Shown here: positions 1,039 through 4,054 of the stretch, piece by piece | Layout of the letters: each line of letters starts with the position of its first letter | How positions within the stretch are numbered: the first letter of the stretch is position 1 | DNA from: a virus | Taxonomy: Duplodnaviria > Heunggongvirae > Uroviricota > Caudoviricetes | Strand: one strand, 5' to 3' | IMG/VR virus record: IMGVR_UViG_2548876944_000012 | Length of the DNA stretch: 4,054 bases | Made by a program: the position numbers and the translations under genes | Notes under the pieces: generated by a model | Seen by the model: the letters and a program-made list of their open reading frames with translations, nothing else | The model's database searches: none | Told to the model about the DNA's origin: nothing

Positions 1039-2028
1039 ATGAAGAAAAAATACGAACTGGTTGTTAAAGAGATAAATAATTACCCGGATAAGATTGCTGT
1101 TACTGTGGCACTTGAAATTGGCGGGCATCCGTCGTTGTTGTTGCCACATGTGGCGATTAGTCTTGACCGTACTGAAGGTGCCACGCTGGAGTTCTACGAA
1201 GCTGAGGCGAAAAAACAGGCGAAGCAGTTTTTCATGGATATTGTTGCCGGGTTATGCGAAGGGGATGAACCGTCACCGGAAAAGCGCCCCGTAATTTTAG
1301 ATGCGCAGGATGTATTGATAACCTACAAAGGAAAGCTACCGGGAAGAATTACTTGTTCTCTGAAGATGCCGCCGTCAACACTGCGGTCAGAAAAAGATGA
1401 TGTTGAATCGCGTATTGAAAAACTGGAGTGCTATATCGCTGAATTGAAAAAAAGCACCCCAACAAAAAATGAGGTGCTTGCAGCAGACGAAATGAAAGAA
1501 GCTATTCCTGATCGCGCGGCGAATCTAAGCTGCGCTTCATGGTTGAAAGAGCATCTTCAGCAGCCTGAAAAAAAACGCCGCGATGAGCAGTTTGCTGCGT
1601 TTTACGATTATTGCCGGAAAGTGATGAGCAGAAATCTCGCAGAGTGTTTCAGTATTCATAATGATAATTTCAGTGACCTGGAATGGGAGTGTAACCGGCC
1701 ATCCTTTGTTGTATCCGGTGATGCTGGGAAAATAACCATCTCAGAAAATGGAAAAGTAACACCGCCATCGCACCAGCATAGTGAGGAGCTCATTGAATTT
1801 GCCATTGATTACCTGAAGAACAATAAAAAGCAGGGGCTGATGAAGTGCATTGGTCGTTGCATGGGATATCTGCAGATAGCTGCTGAGATTGAAGCGCTGG
1901 CCAGTGGTGCGGACAAGGATGCAGTTGTGCGGGAGGCTCTTCTTCGTGATTTTGATAATCCGCCCTTTAAAAAAGTGCCGGCTTACTGGTTTCATCCAGG
2001 ACTGACTTATCTTAAAGGACGTATATAA
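1039..2028 (+). CDS. Uncharacterised 329-aa protein inserted between holin and endolysin; function unknown
   Basis: Long uninterrupted ORF. ATG at 1039 lies 4 nt after the holin stop, with GGGGAGA (1024-1030) inside the holin 3' end, which suggests translational coupling to S. No TM segment, signal peptide or catalytic motif that I recognise. Lys/Glu-rich with several Cys (for example CIGRC near the C-terminus). By eye it is more AT-rich than the flanking S, R and Rz genes (not computed). Confidence 0.8.
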   Translation: MKKKYELVVKEINNYPDKIAVTVALEIGGHPSLLLPHVAISLDRTEGATLEFYEAEAKKQAKQFFMDIVAGLCEGDEPSPEKRPVILDAQDVLITYKGKLPGRITCSLKMPPSTLRSEKDDVESRIEKLECYIAELKKSTPTKNEVLAADEMKEAIPDRAANLSCASWLKEHLQQPEKKRRDEQFAAFYDYCRKVMSRNLAECFSIHNDNFSDLEWECNRPSFVVSGDAGKITISENGKVTPPSHQHSEELIEFAIDYLKNNKKQGLMKCIGRCMGYLQIAAEIEALASGADKDAVVREALLRDFDNPPFKKVPAYWFHPGLTYLKGRI

Positions 2029-2070: not shown

Positions 2071-2604
2071 ATGAACACCAAAATCAAATACGGCCTGTCG
2101 GCTGCCGTTCTGGCGCTGATTGCCGCTGGTGCGCCTGCGCCTGATATTCTCGACCAGTTTCTGGATGAAAAGGAAGGTAACCACACCACGGCATACCGTG
2201 ATGGTGCGGGGATCTGGACCATCTGCCGTGGTGCCATCATGGTGGATGGTAAACCTGTTGTTCCAGGCATGAAGTTGTCGAAGGCAAAATGCGCTCAGGT
2301 TAACGCCATTGAGCGTAATAAGGCGCTGGCATGGGTGGAGAAAAACATCAAAGTGCCATTGACCGAACCACAGAAAGCGGGGATTGCGTCATTCTGTCCG
2401 TACAACATTGGCCCCGGTAAGTGTTTCCCGTCGACGTTTTATAAACGAATTAATGCAGGCGATCGCAGGGGGGCGTGTGAGGCGATTCGCTGGTGGATTA
2501 AGGACGGTGGCAGAGACTGCCGTATTCGCTCAAACAACTGTTACGGTCAGGTATCCCGTCGCGACCAGGAGAGTGCGCTGGCGTGCTGGGGAATTGACAG
2601 ATAA
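2071..2604 (+). CDS. R: SAR endolysin (lysozyme, T4-lysozyme-like fold), 177 aa
   Basis: The translation has a weakly hydrophobic Gly/Ala-rich N-terminal signal-anchor-release segment (YGLSAAVLALIAAGAPAP). Glu35, Asp44 and Thr50 (EGNHTTAYRDGAGIWT) sit at the positions of the phage 21 R21 / T4 lysozyme catalytic triad. Overall it resembles the lysozymes of 933W-type phages and E. coli cryptic prophages, as recalled from memory. There is a 42-nt gap after the upstream ORF and no strong SD. Confidence 0.9.
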   Translation: MNTKIKYGLSAAVLALIAAGAPAPDILDQFLDEKEGNHTTAYRDGAGIWTICRGAIMVDGKPVVPGMKLSKAKCAQVNAIERNKALAWVEKNIKVPLTEPQKAGIASFCPYNIGPGKCFPSTFYKRINAGDRRGACEAIRWWIKDGGRDCRIRSNNCYGQVSRRDQESALACWGIDR

Positions 2605-2694: not shown

Positions 2695-2736
2695 AAAACC
2701 CCGTTTGTTGGCTGCAAGCGGGGTTTTGTGTTTCCT
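2695..2736. terminator. Bidirectional rho-independent terminator in the R-Rz gap
   Basis: AAAACCCCG (2695-2703) pairs with CGGGGTTTT (2719-2727), 9 bp. On the + strand it is followed by TTTTGTGTTT; on the - strand by TTTTTACTTTTATT. Confidence 0.5.
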
Positions 2737-2763
2737 GACTCTGGAAAAGTCAAAGGAGAAAGT

Positions 2764-2901
2764 GTGTTTGATTTTAGCAAACTGATTCGGGAGATTCGAG
2801 TGATGGCTGAAAAATTATCCACCTGGAAGTTCATTCTTATCTGGCTGGTGTTTGTGATTATGGCCTCCGGTTATTTCATCGGTCAGATACGCTGGTGGTG
2901 A
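2764..2901 (+). CDS. Small hydrophobic single-TM peptide (45 aa from GTG 2764, or 32 aa from ATG 2803), translationally coupled to Rz
   Basis: AGGAG at 2754-2758 sits 5 nt before GTG 2764; an in-frame ATG is at 2803. Translation ends ...MAEKLSTWKFILIWLVFVIMASGYFIGQIRWW. Stop TGA at 2899-2901 is 1 nt before the Rz ATG at 2903. Too short to appear in the ORF track. Coding status unproven. Confidence 0.3.
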   Translation: MFDFSKLIREIRVMAEKLSTWKFILIWLVFVIMASGYFIGQIRWW

Positions 2902-2902
2902 A

Positions 2903-3370
2903 ATGAACCGCGTACTGTGCGTGGTCATCATTGCCCTGCTGGTGGCCTGTGGTGCGCTTAGTCTGGGGCTGAATCATTACCGTGATAACGCCATAACCTA
3001 CAAAGAGCAGCGCGATAAAAAAGTCAGTGAGCTGGAGCAGGCAAATGCAACCATTACTGATATGCAGCAGCGCCAGCGTGATGTTGCTGCACTTGATGCC
3101 AGATACTCGAGGGAATTAGCCGATGCGAGAGCTGAAAATGAAACTCTTCGCGCTGACGTTGCCGCTGGTCGTAAGCGCCTGCGGATCAACGCCACCTGTC
3201 CAGGCTCCGTGCGTGAAGCCCCCACCACCTCCGGCGTGGATAATGCAACCGGCCCCCAACTGGCAGACACCGTTACACGGGATTATTTCACCCTCAGAGA
3301 GCGGCTGATGACGATGCACAAGCAACTGGAAGGGGCACAGGACTATATCCGCACTCAGTGCCTGAAATAA
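2903..3370 (+). CDS. Rz: i-spanin Rz (inner-membrane spanin), 155 aa
   Basis: N-terminal TM segment followed by NHYRDNAITYKEQRDK...RDVAALDA...AENETLRADVAAGRKRLRI...DYFTLRERLMTMHKQLEG, which is near-colinear with lambda Rz as recalled. It contains the embedded +1-frame Rz1. Confidence 0.9.
   Translation: MNRVLCVVIIALLVACGALSLGLNHYRDNAITYKEQRDKKVSELEQANATITDMQQRQRDVAALDARYSRELADARAENETLRADVAAGRKRLRINATCPGSVREAPTTSGVDNATGPQLADTVTRDYFTLRERLMTMHKQLEGAQDYIRTQCLK
3123..3308 (+). CDS. Rz1: o-spanin Rz1 (outer-membrane lipoprotein), 61 aa, embedded in Rz in the +1 frame
   Basis: MRELKMKLFALTLPLVVSACGSTPPVQAPCVKPPPPPAWIMQPAPNWQTPLHGIISPSESG: signal peptide with lipobox VSAC (Cys20), a penta-proline stretch, and a PPPPPAWIMQP...QTPL...GIISPSE core shared with lambda Rz1 as recalled. 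Lies wholly inside Rz in another frame. ATG at 3138 is an alternative start. Confidence 0.85.
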   Translation: MRELKMKLFALTLPLVVSACGSTPPVQAPCVKPPPPPAWIMQPAPNWQTPLHGIISPSESG

Positions 3371-3720
3371 GTTTTGTTGATGCGCCGTATCGTCGCTGTA
3401 TTCCCTCATTAACAGAGACCGCAGCCCGACAGGGAGACTCCTCTGCGCGAGTGTGCGGGGATAATCAAAAACGATACACACCGGGGTTTACCGCGTTAAC
3501 GGAGCGCGGCGTTGTCCCCTCATAGTCGCCTGTCCGGTGCGATGGTGGAAGAAGTCGGATGTTTATCACTATTAATTGATGACACAGAAATGGATTCATT
3601 GAATTTCAGCACGTTTTTGTATTCGTGTTATTGAACATCTGTTTATTTTACTTTTAACATATTGATAATAAAAAGAGCTGTAAATCTTTAGATGAGTCGA
3701 TTTTGTCCGGGGAAGTTCAA

Positions 3721-3858
3721 ATGGATTTTATGCTGACGGTTTCTGGTGTGGTTATCCTGTCCATTGCTTATACTGCAGATAAATATGGCTGCCATTTGTT
3801 ATCACGTATTGGCGCTTATTGTTCGTTGATGCTGATTTTCTCGTCGCTTTTTTTTTGA
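3721..3858 (+). CDS. Speculative 45-codon hydrophobic peptide ORF in the AT-rich region downstream of Rz
   Basis: Manual translation gives MDFMLTVSGVVILSIAYTADKYGCHLLSRIGAYCSLMLIFSSLFF. GGGGAAG at 3709-3715 precedes the ATG, and the ORF ends in a T9 run (3848-3856). It sits in a roughly 300-bp AT-rich stretch with promoter-like hexamers. Not in the ORF track (too short); no homology recognised. Confidence 0.2.
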   Translation: MDFMLTVSGVVILSIAYTADKYGCHLLSRIGAYCSLMLIFSSLFF

Positions 3859-4031
3859 GTAAGTTATATTAATTATAACAAATAATTTTCTGTGTTATTT
3901 TTTCAGGCTATCCCGTCAGAGGGGAAGCCTGTACTGCCGGGGAGCGAATGGAAAACTGATGTGTCCGGTAACTGCGTGTTCTGTGAACACCATGTTACTT
4001 AGACTGGCCCCCTGAATCTCCAGACAACCAG

Positions 4032-4051
4032 TATCACTTAAATAAGTGATA
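4032..4051. repeat. Perfect palindrome TATCACTT-AAAT-AAGTGATA (8-bp arms), operator-like
   Basis: Read directly from the sequence. The arms carry the TATCAC / GTGATA hexamer that forms the lambda cI/Cro operator half-site, but the 20-bp span differs from the 17-bp lambda operators. The window ends 3 bp later, so the context is cut off. Confidence 0.4.
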
Positions 4052-4054
4052 GTC

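Follow-up and report, generated by a model that had tools for sequence, protein, structure and literature searches.

The 4,054-nucleotide stretch of DNA considered here (hereafter the window; IMG/VR record IMGVR_UViG_2548876944_000012) is, by its gene calls and family matches, the lysis region of a lambdoid Escherichia coli prophage, and what follows its Rz gene is the junction between the lysis and packaging genes of that prophage, not an empty tail. Four parts can be distinguished there: an RNA fold, an AT-rich cassette, the end of a ynfO/ylcI-type gene and the end of the insertion sequence IS2. Taken as a whole, the junction probably combines a structured RNA carried in the late messenger RNA (mRNA), an AT-rich moron encoding a small membrane protein and a ynfO-type gene cut by IS2, a reading held with fair confidence. 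The original prediction, made from the sequence of the window, correctly placed the end of Rz at 3370 and the change from GC-rich to AT-rich composition (a GC fraction of 0.50–0.58 over 3350–3599 and of 0.27–0.30 over 3550–3699). Its description of the region as a non-coding tail misses the most conserved object present, the RNA fold at 3387–3560.

The fold was recognized from covariation. A consensus structure calculated with RNAalifold from 31 sequences, all with pairwise differences above 4%, contains 42 base pairs, of which 28 belong to a 5′ domain made of one long irregular helix, and the rest form two 3′ hairpins (Table 1). Standard pairs fill 98.1% of the sequence-by-pair cells, compared with 35–66% when the 3′ partners are slid by 1–3 columns. 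Compensatory changes, altering both sides of a pair, occur at 13 pairs (2–8 in the slid controls), and none of 500 column shuffles reached the observed pairing values. The pair cells include 165 G.U and 7 A.C combinations, a bias which indicates that the plus strand, the strand of the late transcript, is the one that folds. Three unpaired stretches, AAUCAAAAAC, CACACCGGG and GGAAGAA, are invariant. Of the 28 pairs in the 5′ domain, the copies in phage lambda and in the cryptic K-12 prophage DLP12 can form 26, one of them through a C-G to G-C swap in the main helix. A local hairpin of the form GTGTGC...GCACAC was considered and dropped, as the long-range helices explain the variation better. 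The whole window gave no covariance-model match to the element in Rfam 15 (E ≤ 1), and a search of open-access text returned nothing relevant that describes an RNA at this position.

The element is widespread and mostly unannotated. Window positions 3385–3570 match 398 phage records at 60–99% identity, including Stx1 and Stx2 (Shiga toxin) phages, lambda-like phages and a Salmonella phage. It is found in 4,145 of 5,426 complete E. coli genomes (76%), with a median of 2 and a maximum of 11 copies per genome, and E. coli plasmids carry 691 copies. Profile searches with nhmmer located the lambda copy at 46,873–47,040, between bor and lambdap78, and the DLP12 copy at 579,014–579,182, between borD and ybcV. 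The sequence that follows bor in both is present in the window without bor itself, and the statement in the original prediction that no bor-like gene is found here holds, as minus-strand open reading frames (ORFs) within 3371–4054 reach at most 44 amino acids, against about 97 codons for Bor/Iss. The 115 copies of the element in viral contigs have upstream flanks of 24 classes and downstream flanks of 30 classes, and in 12 of them a cosN-like sequence lies about 100–150 nucleotides (nt) to the 3′ side. With so many different flanks, the element is a conserved island at the lysis/packaging junction that is independent of its neighbours. A scan of the genome collection with a 21-base pattern reached 8 species only and added little diversity. 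On the IncF plasmid NZ_CP023363.1 (locus L218, 777–1700), the bor homologue iss precedes the 5′ half of the element, after which comes an IS2 end; this order mirrors the IS2 junction of the window. O157:H7 prophages (L006/L231) carry an ORF of 74 residues (WP_000735655, ECs1536) between Rz and the element; it has no Pfam match and is absent from the window.

The GC-rich block could be conserved for a reason unrelated to RNA, either because it encodes a small protein (phrog_6954, or ORF B85) or because it is a DNA site, such as a linker for recombination between modules or a packaging sequence near cos. A match to PHROG family 6954 with E = 1.4e-16 and the 81-amino-acid ORF that some records annotate there speak for a protein. 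However, the variable alignment columns are spread over the codon positions as 33, 31 and 32, that is, with no codon periodicity; in the phrog_6954-type frame, a stop comes before codon 60 in 54 of the 89 distinct variants, and insertions or deletions (indels) of 1–2 nt in relatives break the 55-codon frame of the window. ECs1537, the old Sakai ORF over the element, has a ribosome coverage of 0.18 according to the supplementary tables of Hücker et al. 2017 (PMC5597208), the source of the expression values given here; the RPKM values (reads per kilobase per million mapped reads) apply to O157 strain Sakai in lysogeny broth (LB) at 37 °C, uninduced. The PHROG label of the ORF over the element, ‘Rz-like spanin’, was rejected as a propagated annotation. 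A DNA site would fit the position of the block exactly at a mosaic boundary with many flanks and, in those 12 viral-contig copies, about 100 nt from cosN, but a duplex DNA site would yield neither the 13 compensatory pairs nor the excess of G.U over A.C, and the lambda copy of the block is 1.46 kb away from cos. Both versions are very improbable. From the comparison of sequences, the compensatory pairs, the strand-specific wobbles and the lack of a coding signal make it well supported that 3387–3560 is a structured non-coding RNA. A mini-ORF of 10 codons (3381–3413, ATG CGC ... CAT TAA, encoding MRRIVAVFPH) is seen in most variants, spans the 5′ strands of both main helices and is broken in lambda-type variants.

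With the fold established, we infer for its function that the element would act in cis within the Q-dependent late mRNA, since neither a conserved promoter 5′ of it nor a terminator 3′ of it was found and ECs1537 has an RNA-seq RPKM of only 3.0 in uninduced cells. The 28-pair rod looks like an RNase III substrate, and the best guess is therefore a site for processing, stability or the binding of a protein. The wider proposal, that this element of about 175 nt is an undescribed class of functional RNA in lambdoid phages, lambda included, serving for example as a processing site of the late transcript or as a protein- or ligand-binding regulator at the lysis/packaging boundary, is made tentatively, at slightly less than an even chance. 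Several points weigh against the reading of the block as a functional RNA. The folding energy of the single sequence does not differ from that of shuffled sequences (z = −0.08), so that the ‘possibly structured’ GC-rich block of the original prediction was upheld by covariation and not by folding energy; when the block was folded singly on both strands, the z-scores near 0 were uninformative in either direction. The copy in the window has a U.C mismatch (3406/3456) in the main helix, and the mapping of reads to multiple copies may depress the RPKM of the element. Sakai prophages Sp11 and Sp14 are without the element, so it is dispensable rather than essential.

The second subject of interest is the small ORF of the AT-rich cassette, ECs1538 of Sakai prophage Sp6, which the NCBI Prokaryotic Genome Annotation Pipeline (PGAP) annotates in RefSeq genomes with 45 or 46 amino acids. 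The original prediction had pointed to this 45-codon ORF, with its Shine-Dalgarno-like sequence, hydrophobic product and terminal T9 run, and all of these were found (Table 1). It had also held that the region has no ORF on either strand, which is at odds with the PGAP annotation and with the ORFs of 55, 51, 44, 40 and 36 amino acids that are listed. For ECs1538, the Shine-Dalgarno sequence was estimated to lie 4 bp upstream with a dG of −3.6 (PMC5597208). The peptide has a grand average of hydropathy (GRAVY) of 1.21, AlphaFold2 models helices at residues 3–22 and 24–43 with a mean predicted local distance difference test (pLDDT) score of 74, and two transmembrane helices and an inner-membrane location were predicted for ECs1538 (PMC5597208). 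The product is thus predicted to be a two-helix inner-membrane protein. The peptide gave no match in Pfam, NCBIfam, PHROGs or PADLOC at E ≤ 0.1–1. In a literature search, neither the peptide nor its RefSeq accessions were found in the texts of papers or in two supplements, and ECs1538 appeared in no main text.

Comparison with related prophages, as the original prediction had proposed, found the ORF to be conserved. Relative to the diverged copy L005, the identity is 82.6% over the ORF, 62–65% in its flanks and 62–69% in the rest of the cassette, and indels occur only outside the ORF, with none over its 138 nt. It is the only one of the six frames that is open in both the window and the L005 lineages, and in the same comparison the ratio of non-synonymous to synonymous change (pN/pS) is 0.38 in the ORF frame and 0.59–1.4 in the other five. 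A third lineage (L227/L228) keeps the ORF and has different genes after it. The ORF is intact in about 96% of 96 viral-contig copies, and it forms a GC-richer island (0.41) in AT-rich surroundings (0.28 over 3800–3899). Variation at the end of the peptide is of a particular kind: the T-tract differs in length between strains (T8, T9 or longer), which alters the last residues only, and among the viral-contig copies 70 end in ...FFE (46 amino acids, T8-like), 12 end in ...FF (45 amino acids, T9-like) and 2 extend to 49 amino acids. The T9 run was also considered as an intrinsic terminator and was rejected, as no G+C-rich stem precedes it and the published analysis predicts none either.

The published data for Sakai show that this gene is expressed in the uninduced lysogen. 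ECs1538 has an RNA-seq RPKM of 57.6 and a footprint RPKM of 26.1, while the values are 10.1 and 6.7 for ECs1536, 8.4 and 8.4 for the holin gene ECs1530, and 45.6 and 11.1 for ECs1539, a convergent ynfO-type gene; the footprint RPKM of ECs1537 is 2.1. The transcription of ECs1538 is therefore 6–19 times above that of the adjacent late genes. Its ribosome-to-RNA ratio in LB is 0.46, with footprints over 0.98 of the ORF, and the classifier of the authors called it ‘real’ (PMC5597208). They predicted no terminator, and RNA and footprints continue 3′ of ECs1538 (XECs147/148); the ORF of the window that corresponds to XECs148 mainly shows plus-strand RNA running past the small ORF.

A source for this transcription is suggested by a conserved core within the cassette, which is 92.5% identical to the L005 copy, with flanks at 65–69%. 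It contains a predicted sigma-70 promoter on the plus strand, and a BPROM promoter of score 8 was published for about Sakai position 1,560,910 (PMC5597208), which corresponds to about 3660 in the window when placed from the distances given for two neighbouring ORFs. A simple promoter scan reported only a minus-strand site, 3684–3656, in the core. The only match of the window to the consensus of integration host factor (IHF) also lies there (3655–3667, minus strand; 0.20 expected); this IHF-like site is not significant alone, as 37 of 200 shuffles had at least one match. The cassette shows a strong excess of T on the plus strand (AT skew −0.32 to −0.42). Window positions 3556–3995 were found in 734 of 5,426 E. 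coli genomes, usually once, in two close alleles (99–100% and about 97%), with one copy, L005, at 76%; among the 115 junction copies from viral contigs, only 10 have the cassette core. Other prophages have bor, DUF1398 genes, pchB/pchC or nothing there. In Sakai Sp11 and Sp14 (L232, L233), pchB and pchC, regulators of the locus of enterocyte effacement (LEE), occupy this insertion site between Rz and the small terminase gene.

The evidence supports the small ORF as a moron gene that is expressed in the uninduced lysogen and has a predicted promoter of its own. Expression in the lysogen from its own signal is the behaviour of a moron, and the small membrane-protein moron offered by the original prediction as one of two possibilities was strengthened by the intact ORF in three lineages, its presence in about 10 of 115 junction copies and the expression of ECs1538. 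As proposed here, the cassette promoter in the core (about 3631–3660) would drive the synthesis of a 45/46-residue two-helix inner-membrane protein; its production in the lysogen would not depend on the late genes, and it may modulate a host membrane function or exclude other phages, rather than act as a toxin.

Two other explanations of the ORF have to be weighed, along with the points that speak against a functional moron gene. It could be a chance frame in T-rich DNA that is transcribed and touched by ribosomes, the conserved core serving something else. Hydrophobic ORFs are expected from T-rich composition alone; the ORF is an orphan restricted to E. coli prophages, with no homologue of the peptide outside E. 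coli in an exhaustive HMMER search that finds its own family only; its lineages number only three, and sequence diversity is small. In the closest comparison, that with the L227/L228 lineage, the ORF shows 5 non-synonymous and 2 synonymous changes, and for this reason the constraint on the peptide is rated as modest. The C-terminus varies through slippage in the homopolymer, the doubtful neighbouring ORFs XECs147/148 have similar footprint levels, and the expression of ECs1538 is low in absolute terms. Stem scans and the published prediction found no terminator after the ORF, and for lack of one the cassette is not a textbook moron. A chance frame is nevertheless unlikely given that the ORF alone remains open in both diverged lineages with the lowest pN/pS, is free of indels while its flanks have them, exceeds those flanks in identity, is intact in nearly all copies, stands out as a GC island and is covered by ribosomes almost throughout. 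The other explanation is a type I toxin, a reading that the original prediction had also suggested; a small RNA, antisense or divergent, made from the AT-rich flanks would then block its translation. The peptide is indeed small, hydrophobic, prophage-borne and set in AT-rich DNA, and the ribosome-to-RNA ratio of ECs1538 is low (0.23–0.46). There are candidates for an antisense promoter: the minus strand has a perfect extended −10, TGTTATAAT, at 3881–3873 that is aimed into the ORF, and the minus-strand site in the core lies upstream of the ORF. Yet TGTTATAAT is the one good promoter-like site on the minus strand 3′ of the ORF, and two of the three lineages have lost it while retaining the ORF, by deletion in L227/L228 and by mutation in L005; promoter-like sites are no more numerous than in shuffled sequences (1 found, 1.6 expected). 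Scans found no antisense terminator, and Tree et al. 2014 (PMC4104026), who cross-linked Hfq to RNA in Sakai, reported no orphan peak within the cassette. Searches of Pfam, NCBIfam, PHROGs, PADLOC and by HMMER gave no match to Hok, Ldr, TisB, Ibs, ShoB, Zor or any other family, in agreement with the earlier remark that no similarity to those peptides could be recognized. Ribosomes over 98% of the ORF in normally growing cells would be unusual for a silenced toxin, and two predicted hydrophobic helices differ from the single helix typical of type I toxins. The toxin-antitoxin explanation finds no support in these results and is judged quite improbable.

Hfq-associated RNAs do lie close to the RNA element in other Sakai prophages. 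The abundant Hfq-binding peaks EcOnc10, EcOnc11 and EcOnc12 (PMC4104026) are on the minus strand directly 3′ of the element in Sp9, Sp10 and Sp12, in a different cassette, a placement that holds only after correction of a 137–141 nt shift between versions of the Sakai genome. An apparent position of EcOnc12 on the core of the element was an artefact of that shift; the peak is actually just 3′, on the minus strand. In Sp9 (L230, about 9648–9707, minus strand), the terminator at which the EcOnc RNA stops directly adjoins the 3′ end of the element, on the downstream side of the ynfO-like gene ECs_1788.

The right end of the window, overlooked in the original prediction, holds the end of a ynfO-like gene at 3995–4001 and, in its last 55 bases, the end of IS2. 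The gene end was placed by synteny with intact loci, where this convergent gene normally comes next, and the intact homologue has a Pfam match to DUF3950; the remainder of the gene is on the far side of the IS2 insertion. Similarity to intact prophages ends at 4001. A 57-nt IS2 end recurs in 4,396 plasmid records, and many records have it at 100% identity; in one plasmid record, an annotated ‘IS3-like element IS2 family transposase’ follows it at a distance of 37 nt. By these sequence matches, the terminal 55 bases are the left end of IS2 (IS3 family). The stop of homology at 4001 and the position of the stop codon at 3995–3997 imply that IS2 cuts the ynfO-type gene two codons from its end, and the copy in the window can hence be seen as part of a decaying prophage.

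Table 1. Features of the window, with positions counted from its first nucleotide.
Feature	Position	Strand	Remarks
P21-type holin gene	822–1034		
Gene for a 329-residue protein	1039–2028		YdfR/DUF1327 N-terminus; between holin and lysozyme genes
Lysozyme gene	2071–2604		
Small membrane ORF	2728–2901		phrog_6632
Rz	2903–3370		Rz1 embedded at 3123–3308
55-codon ORF over the RNA element	3358–3525	+	phrog_6954 (‘Rz-like spanin’) match; judged not to be a gene
Conserved structured RNA element	3387–3560	+	Covariation; about 175 nt
RNA element, 5′ domain	3387–3393/3471–3477, 3399–3413/3451–3463, 3420–3424/3443–3447, 3432–3434/3440–3442	+	One long irregular helix
RNA element, first 3′ hairpin	3483–3485/3517–3519	+	Encloses 3491–3494/3506–3509
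RNA element, second 3′ hairpin	3532–3538/3554–3560	+	Loop with conserved GGAAGAA
AT-rich cassette	3566–3994		Inserted (probable moron)
Conserved cassette core	3631–3683		Predicted sigma-70 promoter and IHF-consensus match
Predicted sigma-70 promoter for the small ORF	3631–3636 and 3655–3660	+	TTGAAC, 18 nt, TAACAT
Weak Shine-Dalgarno-like sequence	3709–3715	+	GGGGAAG, 5 nt before ATG
Small ORF	3721–3858	+	45 codons and TGA; WP_000347012/WP_000347013; ECs1538 of O157:H7 Sakai prophage Sp6
T9 homopolymer	3848–3856	+	Stop codon starts with its final T
36-codon ORF	3892–4002	+	XECs148 of Sakai ribosome profiling; ‘pseudo’ by the authors’ classifier
YlcI/YnfO-family (DUF3950) gene, 3′ end	3995–4001	−	Stop at 3995–3997 and last one or two codons; synteny with intact loci
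IS2 left end	4000–4054	+	Junction ambiguous within 4000–4002; first 55 nt inside the window

Other observations were made in the lysis genes that precede the junction. In the 329-residue protein encoded between the holin and lysozyme genes, the DUF1327/YdfR match is confined to residues 1–100, and the C-terminal part of about 230 residues is without a family match; related prophages have a YdfR of 103–114 residues or one annotated as truncated. The interval from the DUF826/DUF6645 ORFs to the holin gene contains a strong terminator-like hairpin on the minus strand (543–572) and another on the plus strand (747–773). In published work, this part of the prophage, between the late promoter and the holin gene, is where the small RNAs AgvB/AsxR and PasA/PasC are located; the Rfam models for AgvB, AsxR and STnc100 gave no match in the window. 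Between the lysozyme gene and the next small ORF there is a 14-pair hairpin (2671–2760, minus; 2695–2727, plus) with A and T runs at its flanks, which is probably a two-way terminator within the lysis cassette. The sole Rfam match of the whole window (E ≤ 1), resembling the rimP leader, falls at 2671–2760 with 29.9 bits, against a family threshold of 47.

The elements of the junction can be set beside better known systems. RNase III sites and other cis-acting structures are found in the polycistronic mRNAs of phages, such as the R sites of T7 and the sib and N leader structures of lambda. By analogy, the RNA element may resemble these in having a long irregular helix of about 28 pairs with conserved internal loops, situated between blocks of genes in a long late transcript; it differs in adding two hairpins and a conserved purine-rich loop, and there is no sequence similarity and no Rfam match. 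With the prophage small RNAs (AgvB/AsxR, the Pas RNAs and EcOnc10–12), it shares the character of a conserved non-coding element at a fixed position in lambdoid prophages. In contrast, AgvB/AsxR and PasA/PasC are upstream of the holin gene, short and ended by a terminator, whereas the RNA element is about 175 nt long, lacks both a terminator and a conserved promoter and is not among the reported Hfq sites. The small-ORF cassette resembles the morons of lambdoid phages (bor and lom of lambda, pchB/pchC of Sakai Sp11 and Sp14) as an extra gene between the lysis and packaging genes that only some relatives carry; it is likewise rich in AT, has its own predicted promoter and is expressed in the uninduced lysogen more strongly than the flanking late genes. 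It differs from them in the absence of a terminator and in its orphan product of 45 residues, and unlike bor of lambda, the small ORF runs with the late transcript. Type I toxins (Hok/Gef, Ldr, TisB, Ibs, ShoB and ZorO) are similar to the peptide in size, hydrophobicity and prophage location, but the peptide has no family match and no conserved antisense RNA gene, is predicted to form two helices and is covered by ribosomes in normal growth.

Few viruses have been studied as well as lambda and the Shiga-toxin phages, yet most records leave the RNA element unannotated or give it the bogus label of an Rz-like spanin. With the small ORF, the accessory repertoire of the O157 and O104:H4 strains gains an expressed membrane peptide carried on a prophage, at a site that in other prophages holds the pch virulence regulators. 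If the RNA element is functional, it would be an added control point in late gene expression, which also governs the release of toxin, and it is directly testable in lambda.

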